IMG/VR virus record: IMGVR_UViG_3300028833_000066
Direction: 5' to 3' (one strand)
DNA length: 64,000 nt
DNA from: a virus
Taxonomy: Duplodnaviria; Caudoviricetes
Part shown: one piece after another, positions 32,582 to 56,996 of the stretch
How positions within the stretch are numbered: position 1 is the first letter of the stretch
Layout: every line of letters starts with the position of its first letter
Program-made: the position numbers and the translations under genes
The notes under the pieces: model-generated
Database searches by the model: none
Told to the model about the DNA's origin: nothing
What the model saw: the letters and a program-made list of their open reading frames with translations, nothing else

Positions 32582-32638
32582 AAAGTATAGATTTTTGATT
32601 TTTTAAGGAGGTAGTCAAAAATCTATACTTCTTTTTTT
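32579..32638 (+). terminator. Hairpin/terminator after the helicase gene
   Basis: AAGTATAGATTTTTGA...TCAAAAATCTATACTT followed by a T run. Confidence 0.55.
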
Positions 32639-32714
32639 TAAAAAAAATACTTTCCCATTATATTATAAAATAAATTTAATTATTTGTCAATAATTAAATA
32701 AATGGAAAAATTTT

Positions 32715-32835
32715 CCAGCTTCTCCACCTTTGCATCCCAGCTCCTCCACGTTGGTAAAATTTTCCAGCTCCACCCAGCTCCCATAAGCCCAGCTCCCAGC
32801 TTCTGACCCAGCTCCTGCGGGCTGGCTCCGCCTGG
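32715..32835. repeat. CCAGCT short-repeat cluster at the left edge of the promoter island
   Basis: 7 copies of CCAGCT plus 3 CTCCAC in 120 bp. Confidence 0.65.
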
Positions 32836-33076
32836 AAAATTTTTATAAATTTGTAAAAATTTGGCTGCCGGCAAATATTTGACTTGTGTCAAACACTTGA
32901 CAAAAATAGTTAGTTAGTCATAACTAACTCCTAAAAAATTTTTTTATTTGGGGCTTGACAACTTGACACGAATGTGATATAATGGTAGAGGTGGGAGAGT
33001 ATCTGGCGGCGCCGGCAGAATTTTGTGCCGGCATGATTTTTATGTCGGCAAAGAAAAAAAGGGTAGTTTCCTACCC

Positions 33077-40334: not shown

Positions 40335-40778
40335 TCATTTTATTACTCCTTTCAGTACGCGGATGATTTCGTTAGGGGTGAAAGCGCCATCGCCCCATGC
40401 CTTGCGGTTCGGTTCCTCATCATCGAATAGGATGCCACCACCGCAAGCGGTGCGCTTGTCAGTACCATAGCGGACAATCTTGATTTCGTCCCATTCCACA
40501 GAAGGCAGATGCTTATGAAGCCATACCATTTTAGCAAGGGCAATCTCGCCATTGTAGAGATCAGAGCCACCACGGGAAGTCCACGAGATGATACCGATTT
40601 CATAACCATTCGCCTGTACCCTGTGAAGAAGCCGAGCGAGATATGCCATATTCACAAGGGGCTTCGCGATGTCGTAGGGACGAGTATCTTCATTGATAAG
40701 ATTTTCAAGCCACCCTTCCACGCCGTAGAGGTCAGCAATCGTTCCGTCCATGTCGAACCAAATAGTCATTTCTGACAC
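40335..40778 (-). CDS. HAD-superfamily 5'(3')-nucleotidase-like protein, paralog C1
   Basis: IWFDMDGTIADLY...ILFDDE. Confidence 0.8.
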   Translation of the reverse strand: MSEMTIWFDMDGTIADLYGVEGWLENLINEDTRPYDIAKPLVNMAYLARLLHRVQANGYEIGIISWTSRGGSDLYNGEIALAKMVWLHKHLPSVEWDEIKIVRYGTDKRTACGGGILFDDEEPNRKAWGDGAFTPNEIIRVLKGVIK

Positions 40779-45227: not shown

Positions 45228-45620
45228 AGTGATATCCTTTCTGGTTTTTAGGACTTTTCCTTGTCCTCTTTACATCTTGATTATACCACAGTTTTGAGGT
45301 CTTGTCAAGTGTTTTTTGAAACTTTTTTTTCGTTTGCGGCAAGATTTCCGTGGCCTTTGGAATCTTGGGAGAGCAGTCCATCTTGCCGCATTCTTTCGGG
45401 TGGTGCCCCTCTGTCCTCCCGACACTTTATATTATACTCGGATTTAGGTTTCTGTCAAGTGTTTTTCGCAAAAAGTTTTGTAAAGTTTTTAACAATGTTG
45501 TTAGTTAGTTATAGCTAACTCGGCCGCCGGCAAAAGAGTTAGTTTCAGCTAACTCTCGTAATTATGCCGGCAGAAAAGTTAGTCGCAGCTAACTTTGCCG
45601 ATAAAAAAACTGACAGCGGC

Positions 45621-46070
45621 TTACGCCACCGCCAGCCCCGCCAGCGTCTTTTCGTTGGTCAGTTCAGCTCCGTCAAACTTGATTTGGAGCTCCCGCCCGT
45701 TCAGGCTCAGGTCTCCGGCCACCCAGAAGGGAACGCTATCCTTGACCCAGTGCTGACCAGCCAGCTCGGTGATGATCCGCTCAAAGTTCTCGCCCTTGTT
45801 GTGGTGGGTGTCAGCTTCCAGATCCTCGGCCTTGCCGATGATCTTGGCCAGCCCCTTGGCAATCAGGGCCAGCTTGTCAGCTTTCGCGACGCGGATGCGA
45901 ATCTTGGCCATGCCGCCCCGCTTGCTGGAAGCGTGGTCCAGCTTCAGCACGGCGTCAGGCAGCTCGGGCAGCTCGGCGGCGAACAGTTCGCCGTGGTGGA
46001 CAAAGCCGAGGACATAAGCATCAGCGGCAGAATGGGCTTCGTAGGTGTTCAGCATCTCTTCGCGGGTCAT
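45621..46070 (-). CDS. Early protein, paralog E1 (possible PD-(D/E)XK-like fold)
   Basis: NKGENFE..PFWVAGDL..QIKFDGA; AGGGAGG RBS. Confidence 0.7.
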   Translation of the reverse strand: MTREEMLNTYEAHSAADAYVLGFVHHGELFAAELPELPDAVLKLDHASSKRGGMAKIRIRVAKADKLALIAKGLAKIIGKAEDLEADTHHNKGENFERIITELAGQHWVKDSVPFWVAGDLSLNGRELQIKFDGAELTNEKTLAGLAVA

Positions 46071-46595
46071 CGTGGTGGCCTCCCTTGCTTTCATCTTACA
46101 AGTAGATTATACAGTGCCGGACCGATTTTGTCAAGAGGTTTTTTGAAAAAAGTTATTACATTTCTGTTAAGATTTTATAGACTTTTCGTAATACTTTTGT
46201 AATAGTTTCGTGCTTTAACGTGTTAAAGCGGAGATACCTCGGCAGGTGAGGTATCCCACGGTGGAGGTACTTCGGCAGGTGAGGTATTGCCGGCAAAGTA
46301 GTTAGTGACAACTAATCTGGTTAGTCATAACTAACTCTTATAATACTTATTTAGTCATAACTAACTCCGCGAAAATAGTTAGTTAGTTATAACTAACTTA
46401 AAAAATCGCACCCTCGCCGTGGGTCCGACCGGTTCTCCGCTCCTCTGGTTATAGTATAGCACACTATGGAAAAATGTCAAGAGGTTTTCAAAAATTTTTT
46501 GAAAAAATTTTGCCGGCAAGATTTTGAAAAAAGTGCTTGACAAGTCCGGACAAGTATGTTATAATCAAGATGTAAAGAGAAGCAAGGAGGAAGAA

Positions 46596-46760
46596 ATGAT
46601 GAAGAGTTTCGAGGTTGAAATTAGCTGGGTAGAGGCTCATGGTTTCCGTTATGTGGTGAAGGATGGCAAGCTGTATTGGCAGACCGCGATTCAGACCGCG
46701 GAGATGGACGAGGATGGTCATATTGTATGGCATGAAAAAGAATATTTTAATCTTCTGTAA
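46596..46760 (+). CDS. Small early protein
   Basis: Promoter 46537-46565; AAGGAGG RBS. Confidence 0.65.
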   Translation: MMKSFEVEISWVEAHGFRYVVKDGKLYWQTAIQTAEMDEDGHIVWHEKEYFNLL

Positions 46761-46832
46761 AACCTCTTGACAAAACATTGACCGTCTGTTATAATCAAGA
46801 TGTACCAAAGAGATAGAAAGGAAGTAGGAACA

Positions 46833-47048
46833 ATGTACAAAACTACTTGGATTATCAGTGATGAAAGTGACGAGGGTATCTATCAGACAGAATTGACCTT
46901 GTATCATTTCGGAAAAACTCCCAAATTTCCCAGTTGGTACATGGAAGAAAATCACTCTTACGTGATTGAAATGGTTTGGAATTTCAAATTGATTGTTCGT
47001 CCTTCAATCTTCTTTAAGTGCCTGACCCATCAATACATTATCAAGTAA
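46833..47048 (+). CDS. Small early protein
   Basis: Promoter 46768-46795; RBS. Confidence 0.55.
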   Translation: MYKTTWIISDESDEGIYQTELTLYHFGKTPKFPSWYMEENHSYVIEMVWNFKLIVRPSIFFKCLTHQYIIK

Positions 47049-47124
47049 AAAAGTACTTGACAAATCCGGCAACCTGTGCTATACTTAGATCGTACCAAGG
47101 GAAGAACAAAAGGAGGATCACAAA

Positions 47125-47433
47125 ATGATCACCATGCGTCATCTGCTGACCCTGAAAGAAAACGACGGCATGACCCTGAAAAACGGCGAGATGATCACTT
47201 ATAAAAGCGGCTGGCAAGTAGCCACCGAAGGCGTGGAATGTGTAAGTCCGAAGGATGCCATGCGTGCGATTAAGCAGTATAACGGCACTTGCGGCGTGTG
47301 GTACGCTGGCGGTATCTACTACATTGACAAAAGCCACCGCGTGAGCACGAAACGTGAGGCCATGGAGATCGGCCGCAAGTGCAAGCAGATTTCCGTCCTG
47401 CGCTGGCATGATATGGGACTTGTCTACTGCTGA
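47125..47433 (+). CDS. Hypothetical early protein
   Basis: AAGGAGG RBS; own promoter. Confidence 0.75.
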   Translation: MITMRHLLTLKENDGMTLKNGEMITYKSGWQVATEGVECVSPKDAMRAIKQYNGTCGVWYAGGIYYIDKSHRVSTKREAMEIGRKCKQISVLRWHDMGLVYC

Positions 47434-47551
47434 GCAGTAGGCCGGAAAAATTTCTTTGAAAAAGTTTTGAAAAAGTGCTTGACAAATAATCGGGAATATG
47501 TTAATATATAGTCACCGGGAGGGACCCCGGAAGATAAAGGAGGAAACGAAA

Positions 47552-47719
47552 ATGACTCACATCAACAACCTGCCCCACACCTTCCGCGCTTGGATTGTCG
47601 CCCGTGAGGTTGATGGCGAGCTGTGGTTCTGGGGGTCTTGGGACTCCCGCGAGGCCGCGCAGGCCGCGGCGTGGGATATCGGCGGCGTGGTCGTGTCCCG
47701 CGACTGGGTGGAGGCCTGA
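47552..47719 (+). CDS. Small early protein, paralog F1
   Basis: WIVAREVDGELWFWGSW. Confidence 0.7.
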   Translation: MTHINNLPHTFRAWIVAREVDGELWFWGSWDSREAAQAAAWDIGGVVVSRDWVEA

Positions 47720-47913
47720 GCCTCCACCCCGGCACCGGATCCACCGGCGCCGTTTTTTATGCCGGCACAAAAGTTAGTTATGACTAACTGATTCGGATCG
47801 GCGGTTAGTTATAACTAACCGGAGTATGTTGCCCTGGCGCTCGGCTGAAAAAAGTTTTTAAAAAACTTTCAAAAACCTCTTGACAAACCCGCGAAAGTGT
47901 GGTAAGATTAAGA

Positions 47914-48022
47914 TGTACCAAGGGAAGAGAGAAGAAGAAAACAACCTCTCCCAAGCGCATAACTTGGTGAAGTAAAATCAAAACTCTCTACCAAACAGAC
48001 GAAACTTTCTTCCCTTGGTACA
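47914..48022 (+). ncRNA. Candidate sRNA closed by a perfect 15-bp terminal stem
   Basis: Promoter 47880-47908; TGTACCAAGGGAAGA...TCTTCCCTTGGTACA; no ORF. Confidence 0.55.
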
Positions 48023-48094
48023 CAAAAACCTCTTGACAAACCGGCCGCAATGCGCTATAATAAGACTGTAAAGAGAAGCAAGGAGGAAACACAA

Positions 48095-48271
48095 ATGCTG
48101 AACACCGAAGAAATCCGCAACGTCCCGACCTACGCCTACGGCCATCCCTATTGGGTGGTGCGCGAGGCGGACGGCGAGTACTGGTTCTATGGCGCGTATG
48201 ACACGCTCGCCCGCGCTCGCGAGGTGGCCGCGATGGTGGACGGCCTCCCCGTGGAGAACCCCGCGGCCTGA
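48095..48271 (+). CDS. Small early protein, paralog F2
   Basis: WVVREADGEYWFYGAY. Confidence 0.7.
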   Translation: MLNTEEIRNVPTYAYGHPYWVVREADGEYWFYGAYDTLARAREVAAMVDGLPVENPAA

Positions 48272-48529
48272 CCCGCCGCGGGTCTTTTTTTGCCCGGATC
48301 GCCGGCATGAAAAAAGTTTGGAAAAATTGCAAAAAGGGCTTGACAGACTTGACATATCATGCTATAATAAGGATGGTGGAGGAGGGCCCAACTATATAAG
48401 TTAGTCATAACTAACTAAATTGCCGGCGAAAAAGTTTGCGGAAAATGAAAAAACCTCTTGACAATTCCGGCAAGATATGCTAATATATAGTCACAGGGAG
48501 GAACCCTGGAAGATAAGGAGGAACGCAAG

Positions 48530-48691
48530 ATGCTGACTGAAAATTCTGGAAAGTACGAAATCCTTGGTTATCTCGTGGAAAATGGCTTTGACCTCGGTGA
48601 CATGACAATGGATGAATGGGCTACGGCCTACACCATGGAGGAACTGTGGGGCATCGTCCAGTATATGCTCGGGCAGGTGGAGGACTGGTAA
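48530..48691 (+). CDS. Small acidic early protein (53 aa)
   Basis: AAGGAGG RBS; promoter 48458-48485. Confidence 0.6.
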   Translation: MLTENSGKYEILGYLVENGFDLGDMTMDEWATAYTMEELWGIVQYMLGQVEDW

Positions 48692-48764
48692 GTCCTTCGC
48701 AATCTCGAAAAAAAGTACTTGACAAAATACACCTTATCCTGTATAATTAAGATGTAGAAAGGAA

Positions 48765-49202
48765 GTGCTCACAATGACGATCTGGTTCGACATGGATGGC
48801 ACAATCGCTGACCTGTATGGTGTGAACAACTGGCTTGACTATCTGCTTGCCCACGATGCTACACCTTACAAGGTTGCAAAGCCTCTTGTCAATATGAACG
48901 TGCTTGCTCGCAAGCTGAACGCTTTACGTAAGCAAGGTTACAAGGTTGGTATCATCTCTTGGCTGAGCAAAAACAGCACTGCCGAATATGACAACGCCGT
49001 GACCTTGGCAAAGCGTGCTTGGCTGGCTGAGCACTTGGCAAGCGTGGCCTTTGATGAGATCCGCATCGTCTCCTATGGTGTGAATAAATGGCAAGCCTGC
49101 GGTGAAGGAATCTTATTCGACGATGAAGAGAAAAACCGCAAGGATTGGAAAAACGACGCCTTTGAACCTTGCCACATTATGGAAGTCTTGAAGAGCCTGT
49201 GA
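48765..49202 (+). CDS. HAD-superfamily nucleotidase-like protein, paralog C2
   Basis: IWFDMDGTIADLYGV...ILFDDE. Confidence 0.8.
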   Translation: MLTMTIWFDMDGTIADLYGVNNWLDYLLAHDATPYKVAKPLVNMNVLARKLNALRKQGYKVGIISWLSKNSTAEYDNAVTLAKRAWLAEHLASVAFDEIRIVSYGVNKWQACGEGILFDDEEKNRKDWKNDAFEPCHIMEVLKSL

Positions 49203-49791
49203 CAAGGTTCTTTTTTTATAATAGTACGGTTAGTCATAACTAACTCGCTTGCCGGCATTAAAAAAGAGTAACCACTACATGGTTACTCTTTTGCCTTGTC
49301 ATTGGCAAGGGCAAGGGCAAACGCCTGCATGATGAAGCCGATCACAACACCTATAAGCCACCAATCACACCGAGACAGATAGCACATAAGCCCGCAAATA
49401 GTGCTGAGGAAGACGCCGAGATAGCCCATCATTTTAGCCCCTTCTTTCCTTTGGTTTCACCTATATTATATCAGAAATTTTGTAAAAGTCAAGTAATAAT
49501 TTTGTAATAGGTGGAGGATTCTGCTCCGAAAAGTCTACCGGCAAATAATAAGAAAAAAGGGCTTGACAAAATCGCCGGCATAATGTATAATAAAGATGCA
49601 CCGGAACGGAGAGACAGGGGAGAGTGAAGACATGAGTTAGTTATAACTAATTACCTTTTCGGCACTGGTGGAGGCTCAAAAAAAATTTTTGAAAAATGAA
49701 AAAGTGCTTGACAAGTCCGGCATTGTGTGCTATACTTTAATCACGGTGGAGGGAGACCGAAGCCGAATAGAAAGAAAAGGGGACTTCAAAA

Positions 49792-50010
49792 ATGACTATC
49801 CGCGAATACTTCGACACTATCTATGCCACCGAGGATTTTGAGGACGCCGCCGACTATGAGCGGACTATCTACCACTGCATGGAAGAGGACTTCGACGACT
49901 TCACTATGTGGGCAGTGGAAAACGGCATTGACCTGACCGCCACCACTGAAATCATGGGCGAAACCGTGCCCGTGTTGCTCGCGTGGGCGTGGGATATGTG
50001 CGAAGAGTGA
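49792..50010 (+). CDS. Highly acidic small early protein (possible DNA mimic)
   Basis: D/E-rich 72 aa; own promoter. Confidence 0.65.
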   Translation: MTIREYFDTIYATEDFEDAADYERTIYHCMEEDFDDFTMWAVENGIDLTATTEIMGETVPVLLAWAWDMCEE

Positions 50011-50256
50011 AAACCCTTCGCCTTTTCTTTTTTTGTAAAAAGTGCTTGACAAGTCTGCCGGTCTGTGCTATACTATCATCAGAGGAAGGGAAAACGCTTC
50101 GGACCAACGGCGGACCTGCCCATTTTTATTTTTGACTATCTTTGATCTTTGTGGACTATGGGCAAAAACTTTTTTCGTAAAAATGCAAAAAAGGGCTTGA
50201 CAAGTTTACCGGCAAGGTGTATAATCAGGGTGAAGATAAGGAAAGGGGACATCACC

Positions 50257-50709
50257 ATGATGAACACTCTGCTGACCGCCTACAACAAGCTGACTGCCGC
50301 CACCATCTACTTTATCGGCTTCGTCCTCTCCGGCACCGTCTACGGTGGCTATTTCACCGAAATTCCCACCGCCGCCCTGAAACTTGACCACGAAAGCACC
50401 GCCCGCGGCGGCGCGGCGAAAATCCGCATTCGCTTTAATAAGGACTTAAAGCTTGCCCTCAAGGCACAAGGCAAAGTCAAAGCCCTTGCCACCATCGAAG
50501 CACTTGCCGCCGACCCCCGTTATAACAAAGGCGACAACTTTGAGAAGCTGATTGCTGAACTGAACGGCATTCAGTGGGCGAAAAACTCTGACCCCTTTTG
50601 GGTCGCTGGAGACCTTGAAATCAACGGCGAACAGGTACAAGTCAAGTTTGACGGTGCGGAACTGGTGAATGAAAAATCCCTCCGCAAAGCCCTGACGGTT
50701 GCCGCCTGA
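50257..50709 (+). CDS. Early protein, paralog E2
   Basis: NKGDNFE..PFWVAGDL..QVKFDGA. Confidence 0.7.
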   Translation: MMNTLLTAYNKLTAATIYFIGFVLSGTVYGGYFTEIPTAALKLDHESTARGGAAKIRIRFNKDLKLALKAQGKVKALATIEALAADPRYNKGDNFEKLIAELNGIQWAKNSDPFWVAGDLEINGEQVQVKFDGAELVNEKSLRKALTVAA

Positions 50710-50843
50710 GTGGCAACCTTCTTTTTTTATTTTTTCATAATAGTTACTTAGTTATCACTAACTCGCTCGACTTTAATGCTTTAATGCAATGAAGTGGAGG
50801 AAAACTATTCGCGTCAATTTACACGCTTTAATGCGTTAAAGAG

Positions 50844-50976
50844 TTGTTAAATTTTTAACAATCGCCCCACCCTCATGTTTTCTTCAATACTTTAATGCAT
50901 TAAAGTGGGTCTGCGGCAGAATACTTATTTAGTTATAACTAACTCGCTCGATGCTATATTGTTAAATTTTTAACAA
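50844..50976. promoter_or_regulatory. Two perfect Rex-like operators (TTGTTAA-N4-TTAACAA)
   Basis: 50844-50861 and 50959-50976; degenerate copies at 36197, 38400, 40113, 43170 and 45478. Confidence 0.6.
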
Positions 50977-51463
50977 GCGGCCCACCTTTATGGTTTAGCA
51001 CTTTAATGTGTTAAAGTGGAGGCACCTGTAACACTTTTGTAACAAATTAAAATCCTGCTTAGTCGGCCGGTATCGTTATAAATCCATAATATTTGAAAGG
51101 TGGAGGGTGGTTCTTGTTCGCGTTTTATTTTTCAAAATAAGCATACCCCCGCCCGCGGAAAAGGATTTATAATTGTTACACCCCACAGTGAAATTTTGTA
51201 ACATTTTTGTAACAAATTCGGACCTACCCTAGCTTCCAGGTGCTAGCTTCCAGCATTTTCCAGACCCCGGGGGCTAGCTTTCGGGATTTTTTGAAAAGTT
51301 AGTCTAGACTAACTAGGGGCGTGCCCAAATTCCACCAACTTTTTTAAAAAATAACTTAAACCACCAACTTTTAAAAATAACCTTCAAAACTAATACTCAA
51401 ACACTTGACAATGCCAAGCCCGATATGTTATAATTTAATCAAGGCAAAGAGGTGTTGAAACAA

Positions 51464-52792
51464 ATGAAAAAAGCTTATTCCCTTGATTATTCAATAGAAC
51501 GCGATACAGACCGTACCGCCGCTATCTATGATATACTTGATCGTTTGGACAAAGTGCCAAGTAATACAGAACTTGAACAAATGGCCAACTACATACTTTA
51601 TGGTAAAGATGAAAATGATTAGAATACGGTACAAAGAAAAGAAATAACTGACTCCAACAAGAGATACGGCTCCTTTAAAACTATGGATGACAAACTTCTT
51701 TCATTGGATGAAATATTAGATAATCCAATGGCAGATCATCAAATTTTGGAGCAAAGATATAAACCCTCAGTTTACAAAAAGCCAAAGCCGCATATTGATA
51801 TGCCGAAATATGATAAAAAGACGGGGGCCCTAATAGACCCTGGCGATTCCGACATTCCGTACATGAAAGAACTATGGGACTCTATTAATAGAATGGAACA
51901 TACCGTTGCGGTAAATGAGGGGAAAATTGCGGCCGACGATACTACTCCCATTCTTAAAGATGATTATCGCCTTTATTAGTTAAAGCATTGGCTAATTGAC
52001 TTACGGCGCCACCAATATTATTTGAAGGATGTATATAAACCTGAATTACACTTTTTAGGTATGGATCATCCAAAGCCCCAATTTTACGATTGGACCTCTG
52101 ATGCATTTTACTGGATTTCACGTGACGAGTGGCAAAAAAAGGTTGACAATTCATTAGTACATTATATTTCCAAAAACATTGATGACTATGAGAAACGCAT
52201 TAATCCTTATACTGGAAAAGAAGAAATTAAGTGGGTTGTACGCGAACACCATTTTGATTGGGAAAACCCCGCACATGTAAAGGCTTTAATAAATTGGTAT
52301 GAACCATTGTATGATTAGCTATATGAAAAATTAGATACTTATGGCCGCACCTTAATATGGGACTTTGAACGCTATCGTAAAATGGCCAATTTTTCAGAAG
52401 TAAGAAATTTTATTTTAGAACTAAAAATTCATCGCACTCCTTATAGTGAAATAGTTGAGTTATTACAAAAAACTTATGGACTAAAATATACTGAAAATTA
52501 TTTATGCACAATTTTATCAAAAGAAATACCAGAAAAAATAGCACAAACAGCATAGAAATGGCGCCTTATTGTTGAGACACCCGAAGACGAGTTAAAAGAA
52601 TGTTATACGTGCGGCCGCAAGCTACCACGACACAAACTCTTCTTTGTGTGTAATAAAAACAGAAAGGATGGTTTCTCATCTAATTGTAAAGAATGTGAGA
52701 AATTACATCGTATTGAAAGAGGAGGTCAAAGTGTAGATGACTAGCGAAATAAAGAAACGCAAGTGCTTAAAATGCAAATAGGAAAAACCTGA
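51464..52792 (+). CDS. Hypothetical protein with C-terminal zinc finger, 442 aa (code 15)
   Basis: GAGGTG RBS; pieces 51683-51979 and 52022-52318 join via TAG; CYTC...CKEC. Confidence 0.75.
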
Positions 52793-53669
52793 ACATGCGT
52801 TTTAGCCTACTAAATCTCCATTCTTTCCGGGCCATCGTTCTCTTATTTGTACAAGCTGTTTGGAAACGTTAATACATTAGGATAATTTAAATGAAGTTGA
52901 TGCGCTTTGCCGCTATTTAGACTTGCCGCTGGATCTTAATAAATGGACTTAGCTGTATGATATACATAAAGATCATACATTATCAGCTTATTTTAATACA
53001 TTGCTTGATGATAGGTATGCGGCCATAAGCTGGGCCGATGAAAATGAGCGCTGGCGGCTAGCCCGTGAAGAAGGCACTATAGATGATGAAATAGATAAAA
53101 TTTCTGAATCTAAGTTGAAGAGACTAAAAAAAGATTGGTCTCCATCATATACTAAAGATGAACTATTATTTTTAGAAGATTATTATAATTAGATTATTGC
53201 CACTTAGAATGTTTCAACTCCAATCTTAAAATCACGTGCCCGTGATCTTTGTGAATTAACATTGCGTGCGAAAAAAGCTATGCGCGAAGGCTTAGATGTA
53301 AAAAAGGATATGGACGCTATCGCGGCTATAATTAAGGATTGTAAGTTTGAGGCTAATAATGCTAAAAATGCGGCCGACTTTGAATCCGTTGGAGAACTTA
53401 TGGTTTATTATGGAAAAAAGGGCTGGCATCCAAAATGGCACACAGAACCGCAAGATTCAATGGATTTTATGATGTAGAATATTTAGAACTACTTAAAGCG
53501 GCTAGTTATAAATGAAGGTAATTTTGCTGAACAAGTAGAAGATAAAAAAGCTCGTTATAATATGACTGAGCGTCTAGAAGAAATTGAAAATGAAGCAGTT
53601 GAATTTGATGATACTGCTGATATAGAATATGAGGGCGAAGATGAACTCGTCGGTGATTTAAATGAATGA
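52737..53669 (+). CDS. Zinc-finger protein upstream of the terminase (possible small terminase), 310 aa (code 15)
   Basis: GGAGG RBS; CLKC..CTSC; in-frame TAG joins; position in the gene order. Confidence 0.7.
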
Positions 53670-55449
53670 GAATACTGATGTTTGTTATAGAGATGGTATT
53701 CCAATTGAGAAAGGCGTAGTTCTTACTCGTGAATTTTTAGACGCTAATTAGGAACTTTTTACTAATTATCTAAATTATTGGTTACTTTATCCAGATTTAT
53801 TTTTAGATGCTATATAGGATTCAGATGATGCTAAACACTTTCATTTACTGCCTTTTTAGCGTATTTCACTTCGTGCTTCAATGCGTTATCGTTATCATTT
53901 CTGGACCGCGACACGTGCTACTTCTAAATCTTTTACAGCATATTTAAGTGCGGTTGTGCGCGCAGTGTTATTACCTAATTCAACTATAATGATTGCTTCT
54001 GATGTAAAAGGAACAGTTATTAAAATTGCTTAGGCTAAGTTTGAAGAAATATTCAAACATTGGCCTTTATTGCGTAAAGAATTAACTGTTAGAGCTGAGG
54101 ATGGTAAAACAGGTCAAAAGGCTAGCGGCAACTACTATGAATTGTGGTTTAAGAATGGTTCAATGATTTCTGTTGTATCCAAAGACACTTCTCGTGGTTT
54201 AAGAGCTACTGCTGCGATTCTTGAAGAAGCCGCTCTTATTGAAGAAGTCCCATATAATGAAGTTCTACTACCGCAAATGAATATTAAAAGAAGAGAAGTT
54301 GATGGCACTTTAAATCCAGAAGAACCATCTGCGGCTCAAATATTTATTACTACTAGTGCCGAACGTACAGTATTTATGTATTAGAAACTTATAGAAATAA
54401 CCATTAATGCTGTCTTGCGGCCAGATGAGTATTTTTCTTGGGGCCTATCATATGAGGTCCCCTTACATTATGGGCTTTTAGATAAAGCAACCTTATTAGA
54501 CCAGCGTTATTCTTCTACGGTGAGTGAAGAATCATTTTCTCGTGAAAATTTATCAATTTGGACTGGTAATAATAAAGATGCGTGGTTGGATTCTCGCAGA
54601 CTTAATAAGCGTCGTACTTTATTAAAATGTGAACGTAAAGCATAGGAGAATCCGCCTAACCCCAATACTTTTTATATAATAGGGGTTGACGTAGCTAGAT
54701 ATTCCGCGAATACGGCTATTATGGTTTTTAAAGTTTTGCCGCAATCTGAAGGCTTTAAGAAAAACTTAATTTATACCGAAGTAATACACGGCGCTAACTA
54801 TATAACTGATTAGGCACCCCGTCTTAAAAAATTAATTTCTCTATTTTAGCCAAGAGAAATTGTTATCGACGGTAATGGCCCTGGTATTGGTTTATTAGAT
54901 GCTATGGTTGTTCCGTCATTTGATGCTAAAACAGGAGAACAATTCCCCGCATATTATGTTTTTAATAACGATCATCATTTGCCACCAGAAATGAAAGTAG
55001 AATCAGAAGAACCCAAACCAGAGTATAGAGCCATTATTTATGACATTAAGGCTGGTTCATCTAATGATGACTTAATTCATTCTAATTTCTTTTCACAAAT
55101 TAATAATGGTACAGTATCATTATTAGCAAATGAACGTATTGTAAAAGATAAATTAGTCTAGACTAAAAAAGGCTAGCGTATGTCATTGTATGATAGACGA
55201 GTTTATTTAATGCCATATGAAATGACTTCGCGGCTAGTAGATGAATGTAATAATTTGCGGTTGAAGCCTACTGGTATTTAGAATCAATTTAAAGTAGAAC
55301 GCATTTCTAAGTCTATTGAAAAGGACCGTTTTTCCGCGATGGAGTATGGACTTTACAGAATAAAGTATTATGAAGATAAAGCGGCAAAGCGAAAAATGCG
55401 GAAACATATATCAGATTTTACTTTCTTTACTTCACATAAGAGGGGGTGA
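53662..55449 (+). CDS. terL: Terminase large subunit, 595 aa (code 15)
   Basis: Q-motif LLPF-TAG-R (53857); Walker A TRATSKS; Walker B AILEEA; nuclease GVDVAR, IDGNG, KDRFSA. Confidence 0.9.
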
Positions 55450-56996
55450 GTAATTTGGGCGATGAAAAAAGGAACTTTAAGTCCTATAAAAAATTAATAG
55501 CAGAAAGAGCGCCATTAAATGAGCGTTCGTATTCTAGAGGTTGGTATAAAAATGCAGAATCAGTATCAAGAGACTTCAATATTGAAGAAATTGAAGAAAT
55601 TATTTGTTCAGGTGATACGATACATTTGCGTGAGCTCTCTCGTTTTTATTATAGAACTAATAGTAGTTATAGAAATAACATTGATTTCCTAGCTCATTTA
55701 CCATTATATGATACTGCCGTAATTCCAGTATATTAGCCTGGCAAGGGCTCTGAAACATAGATGATGAAGGCATTCTATAATGCTTGCGAATTTGTAGAAA
55801 ATTTAGATTTACCTAATGCTCTTTCTCATATTACTACTGAATGGTTAATTAATGGCGTATATTATGGGATATTAAGAACTTCAAAAGATAAAGTAACAAT
55901 TTAGGATTTACCGCTACAATATTGCCGCACTCGGTTTAAGGATTTCAATAATTTAAATATACTAGAATTTAATTTAAATTATTTTATGAAATTTACCGAT
56001 GAGAAAACCAGAAATGAAGTAGTTTCTACTTTCCCAGAGGTCGTTTAGACAGCTTGGAAACAATGGAATCGCGGAAAGAAACAAACCGATCCTTGGGTAA
56101 TGATAGAAGCTGGCGGCGGAGGGGTATGTTTCAGTTTTACAACAGATGGCGTGCCTCCTTTAATTGGTAGTATTCCAGAACTAAAAAAACTTGCCGATGC
56201 TATTAAACGCGAAGAAAAGCGTGATGAAAATGAATTACATAAATTATTAATTCAAGAAATGCCAATTGATAGTAATGGTCAATTAGTATTTGAATTAGAA
56301 GAAGTAGCAGATATACATTCATCTGTTGCTTCTATGTTAGAGGATTTAGATACTGTTGATGTATTAACTACATTTGGAGAAGCAAAACTTGAAAGTGTCC
56401 AAGACAGTTCGGCTGCTACATAGTCTGCGGATAGAATTGAAAAATATAAAAATAATGCTTGGGATGCTCTTGGTCGTAGTCATATTTTATTTAATCCAGA
56501 TGGCAGTGCTGCATTAGATTATGCTATTAAAAAAGATGAGAGTCTTATGAATGGATATTTAAATTAGTATGAAACTTGGATTAAATTTCATATTAATGAT
56601 AAATTTGCACGTACCAATCTTACGTTTGACTTTGAAATTTTACCAATTACAGTATTTAATCGAGAAGAAATGCAAGGTGTATATTTCCGTGGAGCCCAAT
56701 ATGGCTATTCAAAGATGCTTGCGGGTGTAGCTATGGGTGTAAAGCAGCGTGATCAATTAAGCTTAATGCACTTTGAGAATGATATTCTTGAAATGTCTAT
56801 TAAAATGATTCCTTTACAATCTTCTTACACTACATCTGGTATTCCTGGTCAATAGACAGGAAATTCTTCTTCATCAGCACAAAATACTATAACATAGAAG
56901 TCAAGTGACAACACTAATAATACAGGTGGTCGCCCTGAACTTCCTGACGATAAAAAATCAGAAAAAACTCAGGCAAATATTGCGGCCGCTGGATAA
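55446..56996 (+). CDS. Portal protein, about 515 aa (code 15)
   Basis: Follows terL; pieces join via TAG; C-terminal PLQSSYT...GGRP. Confidence 0.8.

Follow-up and report, generated by a model that had tools for sequence, protein, structure and literature searches.

A motif-crowded, gene-free hub between early cassettes and late genes as a candidate docking platform in a TAG-recoded phage genome

What is the use of a stretch of phage DNA that encodes no gene and is crowded with sites resembling the operators of several different regulators? This question is raised by the region of ~0.7 kb, here called the hub, that lies between the terminator of an early gene cassette (50697-50728) and a late promoter (51405-51434) in a Caudoviricetes contig from IMG/VR (record IMGVR_UViG_3300028833_000066). 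The window analysed is the whole stretch formed by the first 63,975 bases, reverse strand, of this 179,585-bp contig, and all coordinates refer to the window unless otherwise specified. The last 128 bases of the contig are the same as its first 128, hence the assembly closes as a circle; the source classes the contig as linear. An initial annotation of the window had proposed that the hub recruits several host transcription factors, either titrating them or sensing the state of the host. We favour, with a probability of roughly 0.45, another reading, in which the hub would be a modular, two-layer nucleoprotein docking platform that controls the early/late boundary.

The hub is the non-coding joint between the standard-code early cassettes and the late genes, which are recoded at TAG. 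When TAG is read as an amino acid, long frames appear at 1-14.9 kb (minus strand), including one for a protein of 2,752 amino acids, and again at 51.45-64 kb (plus strand). At 32.9-50.7 kb the G+C content is higher and the open reading frames (ORFs) do not need recoding. The early island consists of ~18.5 kb of arrayed small genes in the standard code, each with its own near-consensus TTGACA-17-TATAAT promoter, and the stretch of 32.9-51.45 kb has 49 of the window's 58 promoter-like matches. Its transcription diverges at ~46.1-46.5 kb, where the cumulative GC skew also has its minimum (45.9 kb).

On its left, the hub is bounded by the intrinsic terminator (50697-50728, plus strand; 9-bp stem and T run) that closes the last rightward early cassette, that of the gene for the protein P0001; a terminator also follows the P0001-homologous gene in the relatives L005, L009, L010, L015 and L017. 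On its right stands the sigma-A promoter of the recoded late operon (51405-51434, plus strand), a consensus TTGACA-18-TATAAT with a TG extension, invariant in six relatives. With a terminator on one side and a perfect extended -10 promoter on the other, the hub is therefore a non-coding gap between two signals. Its gene-free status, already asserted by the initial annotation, held: the search for tRNA and tmRNA genes found none in the hub, that against Rfam gave no family match for it, and no ORF in it is conserved. The sole hub ORF of at least 40 amino acids (51076-51204, minus strand, 42 amino acids) lies where L005 differs by many indels. A test for a structured non-coding RNA was negative as well, the consensus fold of the conserved leader described below having an energy of -3.9 kcal/mol, with compensatory change in two of its 14 predicted pairs.

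All the motifs that had been listed for the hub are present where they had been placed, and each of them is far above its expectation in shuffled sequences. Precisely, 22 short palindromes were counted in the hub, where dinucleotide shuffles give 2.5 ± 2.0, and 55 of its positions belong to repeated 10-mers (2.0 ± 2.7 in the shuffles). The three places of the 64 kb where repeats are densest are the hub, 46.0-46.9 kb, at the divergence point, and 32.2-33.5 kb, at the left border of the island.

The hub has at least four site classes. The first, PAL (AGTTAGT-N4-ACTAACT), corresponds to the AGTTAG-family palindromes and occurs three times. PAL-1 (50746-50763, ACTTAGTTATCACTAACT) is of the island type, with the usual CATAATAGTT prefix and with GCTCGA in place of the usual GCCGGC; PAL-2 (50927-50944, ATTTAGTTATAACTAACT) lies in the second copy of a 35-nt repeat that includes PAL-1; PAL-3 (51297-51314, AGTTAGTCTAGACTAACT) is perfect, has its centre 102 bp upstream of the -35 centre and is kept in L005, L017 and L029. 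The second class, the CTT boxes (CTTTAA-N4-TTAAAG), is built of contiguous 8-bp units arranged direct-direct-inverted. Three boxes with perfect arms are found at 50826-50841 (CTTTAATGCGTTAAAG), at 50890-50905 (CTTTAATGCATTAAAG, a perfect 16-bp palindrome) and, followed by GTGGAGG, at 51001-51022 (CTTTAATGTGTTAAAG), and a degenerate triple of the units CTTTAATG/CTTTAATG/CAATGAAG, again followed by GTGGAGG, is found at 50771-50794; altogether 14 matches were counted, against 1.9 expected. CTT boxes are nearly specific to the hub, as only one of the four in the genome lies outside it, in the divergence region. The third class is the Rex-type palindrome TTGTTAA-N4-TTAACAA (TTGTTAAATTTTTAACAA), present at 50844-50861 and 50959-50976 within the two copies of a 38-nt repeat. 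These are the sole perfect copies in the 179.6-kb genome, and with up to two mismatches the window holds seven matches against 0.89 expected. The fourth is the WalR-type direct repeat TGTAAC-N5-TGTAAC, which lies inside 22-nt direct repeats at 51027-51048 and 51197-51218 (both plus strand), the latter copy being kept in L005; two matches compare with 0.02 expected. In addition, (G)GTGGAGG lies at 50794, 51016 and 51099. The arrayed motifs are predicted sites for dimeric or oligomeric DNA-binding proteins. Their vocabulary is that of the early island: PAL, triples of CTT octamers, and TGTWAM half-sites in inverted (Rex-like) or direct (WalR-like) orientation.

A similar mix had been noticed at the divergence point, and it is real. 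The sister control region at 46140-46400 has the same motif classes, with CGTAAT-N5-TGTAAT at 46187 and CTTTAACGTGTTAAAG at 46213; four to five palindromes lie at 46300-46398, and the region also holds GGTGGAGG and GCCGGC. We also looked for a long sequence common to both island borders and rejected it, as only PAL aligns (score 37, against a shuffle maximum of 38); ATTTTCCAG and CCAGCTYC are short local repeats.

We gathered more than 20 related viral contigs by means of the late sigma-like protein, the 150-amino-acid P0001 and the conserved box B. Judged by these alignments, the hub has two layers, a conserved leader on the right and a fast-evolving array on the left. The leader comprises the right 270 bp (51181-51450) and is 74-80% identical in L005. 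Its order is box A, one PAL, box B in its extended form CCCAAATTCCACCAAC, one to three A/T-rich repeats, and the extended -10 sigma-A promoter. Two copies of CTAGCTTCCAG precede box A (CCCCGGGGGCTAGCTTTCGGGA, 51265-51286; the whole segment spans 51229-51286, plus strand), which is recognisable in all six diverged relatives. Box B (CCCAAATTCCACCAACTTTT, 51324-51343, plus strand) contains ATTCCACC, found once in the 179.6-kb genome. The A/T-rich repeat CCACCAACTTTT(TT)AAAAA(A)TAAC has two copies 29 bp apart (51332-51380, plus strand) and one to three copies in the relatives. Where protein identity has fallen to ~50%, three blocks of the leader survive, namely CCCGGGGG..TTTCGGGA, then CCCAMATTCCACC with one to three A/T-rich repeats, and TCAAAYAYTTGACAA..TGnTATAAT.

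The extended box B is unique in this genome and occurs in 15 viral contigs. Most of the box-B contigs examined have a TTGACA..TATAAT match 33-81 nt downstream of the box, and every one of the downstream sequences read from them opens with the start of the sigma-like gene. Two other interpretations of leader elements were rejected: the hairpin at 51266-51295 is not a terminator, because neither L005 nor L010 keeps its T run, and box B is not a promoter for a phage sigma factor, because ATTCCACC occurs only once in the genome.

The array, that is the left 470 bp (50730-51220), is 35% identical to that of L005, with 340 nt of indels, and retains all motif classes. Because the L005 array keeps the motif classes while the spacers diverge, selection would act on the sites rather than on the sequence of the array. 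Its poorly conserved middle part (51049-51196; 35% identity to L005, gaps counted) is flanked by 19-nt inverted repeats (51038-51056 and 51162-51180), and contains GGTGGAGG at 51099-51106 and a GC hairpin at 51146-51161. Arrays stand at the same place in at least 10 contigs, in 1 to 15 copies. Both L005 and L017 have ~10 CTT triples whose octamers are likewise arranged direct-direct-inverted; in L016 there are fifteen PAL, spaced by 45-49 bp, and a 7+7 variant of the CTT box; the arrays of L009 and L010 add GGTTCGGTACCGAACC and CTTTGACTTTGACTGACTTTGACC; L007, L008, L034 and L037 have the conserved leader and no array. When L015 and L031 are compared, their identity is 93-99% on the right side of box B and drops below 60% on the left, therefore the arrays travel with the early module and box B marks a mosaic joint. 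The contig ends that fall inside the hubs of L018, L020 and L030 were judged to be ordinary assembly breaks in repeats.

The commonest word of this vocabulary is PAL. There are ~33 PAL sites, all between 32.9 and 51.3 kb, and with at most one mismatch 21 of 22 genome sites are inside the early island. In the form AGTTAGGCTTGACTAACT it lies on the -35 box of seven leftward promoters, with the centre of the site 2 bp from the -35 centre; other sites are ~31-34 bp further upstream or at -53 to -72. It usually adjoins GCCGGC. By these fixed offsets to phage promoters, PAL is to all appearances a global operator of the island. Its layout recalls the stoperators of cluster A mycobacteriophages, in which one short site is repeated through a part of the genome (PMC9283540). 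Both systems have ~30 copies, in short intergenic gaps and on promoters, and PAL is confined to the phage, so that its layout fits a single phage protein silencing many transcription units. Unlike stoperators, which are asymmetric, PAL is symmetric; it keeps to the early island of a 180-kb phage that is apparently virulent, and the hub adds to it at least three further site classes.

Which protein would bind PAL? The complete 181-kb relative G001 has no PAL and has, in its early region, ~26 copies of another palindrome, TTTAGGTGT-N-ACACCTAAA (L022 and L007 correspond to the 50-75 kb part of the G001 contig). This replacement suggests that the binder of PAL is encoded by the phage. The P0001 family is a candidate by position, as it flanks the PAL and CTT clusters: the P0001 gene (50257-50709, plus strand) adjoins the hub and its paralogue (45621-46070, minus strand) adjoins the divergence region, and the family has two to three copies in four PAL-bearing relatives and none in G001. 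P0001 had no match in Pfam or PHROG. As a known DNA-binding or nuclease fold it was rejected, since Foldseek gave no hit at E ≤ 0.001 and the best VIA-align Z was 2.7. The isoelectric point is 9.1 for P0001 and 5.8 for the paralogue, therefore charge is uninformative.

Two further motifs of the hub recur in the island. Five near-copies of the Rex-type palindrome occur in its intergenic DNA, and that at 45478 is ~20-40 nt upstream of a leftward phage -35 box, therefore the near-copies may belong to promoter cassettes. The eight GGTGGAGG of the plus strand all lie at 46.3-51.1 kb (46267-51106), hence in the rightward early arm and the hub, and the other strand has one in the whole genome; it is possible that they act as a leader element, a ribosome-binding look-alike or a Chi-like signal. 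L005 has 15 GGTGGAGG in the homologous 8 kb.

How might such a layout work? In the docking-platform reading, proteins present early in infection would load cooperatively on the arrays. The main loader would be the phage-encoded PAL-binding protein, which would also occupy, and thus occlude, the -35 boxes of leftward early promoters; a CTT-binding protein would load on the arrays too, and host factors may join. The nucleoprotein block formed in this way would back up the terminator at 50697-50728 and would protect the late promoter from the 13 strong early promoters that point the same way. With the conserved leader, it would set the time at which early transcription stops and the late promoter fires.

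Several points weigh against this proposal. Most sites are 180-650 bp from the late promoter. The latter has the consensus sequence and so needs no activator, and a delay of the late proteins could come from TAG recoding alone. Some hub sites equal host consensuses, and sister hubs have DnaA arrays. No helix-turn-helix or ribbon-helix-helix Pfam domain was found among the 39 island proteins, and the structural model of P0001, although of high confidence (predicted local distance difference test score, pLDDT, 94), matched no solved fold. Finally, hubs of the L031 type exist despite a divergent upstream gene. We had considered that hubs might be restricted to genomes with a co-oriented early arm ahead of the late operon, and L031 and L036 contradict this; insulation from co-oriented early transcription is therefore not the sole role of the hub. 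The initial annotation had also held that the sites are not positioned as operators of an adjacent gene. This is correct for the bulk of them (50740-51220), which are too far away for classical operators, and incomplete for the remainder, as the perfect promoter lies just beyond the end that had been given to the region and the nearest sites are 40-100 bp upstream of it.

We compared the host-type sites of the hub with published consensuses: TTGTTAANNNNTTAACAA for clostridial Rex (PMC5367854), TGTWAH-N5-TGTWAH for WalR (PMC9210968) and RGTCAAA-NAN-RGTCAAA for CtsR (PMC12634643). The two Rex-type boxes (50844 and 50959) match the first exactly over 18 bp, and the two WalR-type boxes (51027 and 51197) match the second exactly. 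For each of the two types there is a single independent sequence, duplicated once. Neither type occurs in the hub of L017, a relative with 81% identity in its P0001-like protein, or in hubs that are more distant. Related WalR-type repeats are present in L005, L023 (five), L029 and L021 (~27 phased 11-bp units), and TGTTAC-N5-TGTTAM is found in several lineages. No CtsR-type box was found in the hub; a box with one mismatch, at 50131-50147 (minus strand), is 560 bp away on the left and precedes the P0001 promoter by 50-66 nt. The perfect CtsR-type box GGTCAAAGATAGTCAAA occurs only in L021 and L029, and a one-off variant in L005, L009, L010 and L017.

The DnaA box TTATCCACA was not found in the hub with up to one mismatch, and its one perfect copy in the whole genome is elsewhere. 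The hubs of L031, L035 and L036, which come from different samples, have 10 perfect and 3 near DnaA boxes in the 175 bp that precede box B, and L005 has four perfect ones in a spacer of its early arm (L005:5004-5055), 2 kb upstream of its hub. None of the host-type sites overlaps a promoter core, which distinguishes them from the Rex- and CtsR-type operators of hosts. Moreover, no promoter was found within 400 bp downstream of the Rex-type boxes and no redox or fermentation gene nearby, as the context of a Rex operator would have it. PAL and CTT, the majority of the hub sites, gave no verifiable match to a host operator.

An observation apart concerns L021:200-500, where the ~27 tandem 11-bp units (TGTTACAnAAA / TATTACAnAAA) stand directly upstream of the consensus promoter of a gene of the P0001 family and are preceded by two perfect CtsR-type boxes. 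Such units could be phased, curved DNA or a long binding array on one face of the helix.

The alternative that survives best is drawn from phage T5. The first-step-transfer DNA of T5 has pre-early small genes, strong promoters and the dmp 5'-deoxyribonucleotidase, and its untranslated regions contain repeats, inverted repeats, palindromes, DnaA boxes that are not its origin and an 'injection stop signal' (Davison, bioRxiv 10.1101/866236). By analogy, the early island could be the first DNA to enter the cell, as a terminal repeat or last-packaged end, with box B as a packaging or end site, and the hub could bind resident proteins that anchor or protect the entering DNA. We consider this doubtful, in spite of considerable likeness. 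In both phages a gene-free region of 0.2-1.2 kb, dense in different direct and inverted repeats and in palindromes, stands within or borders a block of small early genes that have strong promoters and include a deoxyribonucleotidase, and its layout is better conserved than the neighbouring ORFs. The T5 pre-early block, with its repeat-crowded untranslated regions, is paralleled by an island that gathers most of the promoter-like sites of the window (the 49 of 58 mentioned above) and two NT5C-like nucleotidase paralogues. Box B, unique in the genome, lies 2.3 kb before the large terminase gene (TerL) at a sharp mosaic joint; the plus-strand GGTGGAGG all fall between 46.3 and 51.1 kb; and sister hubs have ten perfect DnaA boxes.

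What speaks against a T5-like end is that the contig closes on itself by the 128-bp overlap, hence a circular assembly, and that the hub of this genome is without a DnaA box: T5 has such boxes in its own region, here they belong to the sister phages. The nearest TerL relatives, which are large Firmicute phages, are only 32-36% identical and give no guide to the packaging mode. For this phage, a terminal repeat or a two-step injection would be a conjecture. Furthermore, the host is in this case presumably a Firmicute, the hub abuts the promoter of the late/terminase operon, and the function of the T5 region is itself unproven.

Somewhat less probable is the sponge or sensor proposed in the initial annotation. 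In the form considered here, host Rex, WalR and other factors would bind the hub and so couple late expression to the state of the host, or would be titrated by replicated phage DNA with the consequence that host regulons are derepressed. Part of it stands. The hub is non-coding DNA with sites for several predicted sequence-specific proteins, selectively kept, and is no simple operator; some of its sites equal the published Rex and WalR consensuses, each of them twice, and the 180-kb genome has no perfect Rex-type box outside the hub. Relatives have CtsR-type boxes or DnaA arrays at or near the same spot, ten perfect DnaA boxes in some cases, and TGTTAC-N5-TGTTAM repeats in several lineages, and the island proteins are without a recognisable DNA-binding domain. 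The notion of the hub as a whole as a sponge is not supported. Its commonest motifs, PAL and CTT, are the phage's own vocabulary, and PAL is swapped for another palindrome in G001. The Rex- and WalR-type boxes each go back to one duplicated sequence that the L017 hub and the more distant hubs do not have, and the five Rex-type near-copies of the island may be simply parts of promoter cassettes.

A broader variant, tentative at best and about as doubtful as the T5 analogy, takes the pad upstream of box B as a swappable docking place for conserved host DNA-binding proteins across a family of ~180-kb recoded Firmicute phages. The lineages would plug in DnaA sites (10-13), CtsR-type, WalR-type (up to ~27 phased) or Rex-type sites, and the use would be to read or reprogram the state of the host, or to hold and protect the first-entering end before any phage protein exists.

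It is distinctly unlikely, in our opinion, that the hub is a functionless by-product of cassette shuffling, made of promoter-less remnants of the heads and spacers of early cassettes. The cassette vocabulary does appear in cassette order (terminator, CATAATAGTT-PAL, A/T palindrome), the hub is hypervariable with large indels, and the island is full of paralogous cassettes. Against this, at least 10 lineages have kept arrays in this position, with expansion to 10-15 copies; CTT boxes are scarcely found except in the hub and the divergence region; and the motifs are retained while the spacers diverge.

Very unlikely is a replication origin, with initiator arrays beside an A/T-rich unwinding element and fired by the adjacent promoter: repeated sites and A/T-rich repeats (51332-51380) are there, sister phages have DnaA-box arrays at the same place and the G001 core is at a strand-switch point, but the hub has no DnaA box and no adjoining initiator gene, the cumulative GC-skew minimum is away from it (45.9 kb), and a much better candidate, with the traits of a textbook iteron origin, lies outside the window, directly after a gene, at contig C1:126,230-126,450 (five to six CCACGAAAATCGTG spaced by 21-22 bp, with a pure A/T tract of 65 bp and a GC palindrome).

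Returning to the docking platform, the nearest functional parallel is the control region of the Bacillus phage phi29, in which sites for p4 and p6 between the promoters A2c, A2b and A3 turn early transcription off and late transcription on. That region has ~220 bp, one regulator with a histone-like protein, and divergent promoters. It resembles the hub as a short non-coding region with multiple sites between early and late promoters; the hub differs in having 700 bp, at least four site classes, and early and late units that are co-oriented. The kinds of element are hence known from the T5 repeat regions, the stoperators and the phi29 switch, and what is new is a variant of them in an uncultured recoded phage family. 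The unusual feature, as far as the contigs compared tell, is the swapping of modules at one fixed position, some of these modules being arrays of perfect sites for host factors.

A large virulent phage has dozens of very strong early promoters, which it must silence as it switches to its late genes. To our knowledge, nothing is known of early/late switching in uncultured recoded phages beyond the code switch itself. The hub, the sister region at 46.1-46.4 kb and PAL provide a concrete and testable cis-regulatory grammar, whose parts are a single operator of global use, octamer arrays specific to the hub and, at the early/late joint, a conserved box that is unique in the genome. That near-identical phages exchange arrays, perfect DnaA-box arrays included, links this family to the unexplained repeat regions of T5, and the natural array-swap variants can be used to ask whether such regions dock host proteins.

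Downstream of the hub, the order of genes is that of the sigma-like protein (PHROG 5767; 51464-52792, plus strand, the first late gene, with 5 in-frame TAG), a PHROG 3314 protein, TerL (53662-55449, plus strand) and the portal (55446-56996, plus strand). The sigma-like protein had no match among solved structures, and no DNA similarity match was found among deposited phages. We also considered a recoding of TAA at 14-29 kb, which was not borne out, as the region merely holds small genes.

Within the early island, the two NT5C-like 5'-deoxyribonucleotidase genes are paralogous and lie at 40335-40769 (minus strand) and 48774-49202 (plus strand). Four cassettes with a consensus promoter have no ORF (47880-48030, 48339-48450, 49562-49700 and 50046-50190) and are candidate early small RNAs; for the first, a transcript of ~100 nt with a long hairpin (GTACCAAGGGAAGA...TCTTCCCTTGGTAC) is predicted. 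At the left border of the island, 32590-32900 is also gene-free and repeat-dense, with seven CCAGCTYC, two ATTTTCCAGC and long A/T palindromes, and has the highest palindrome count of the window.

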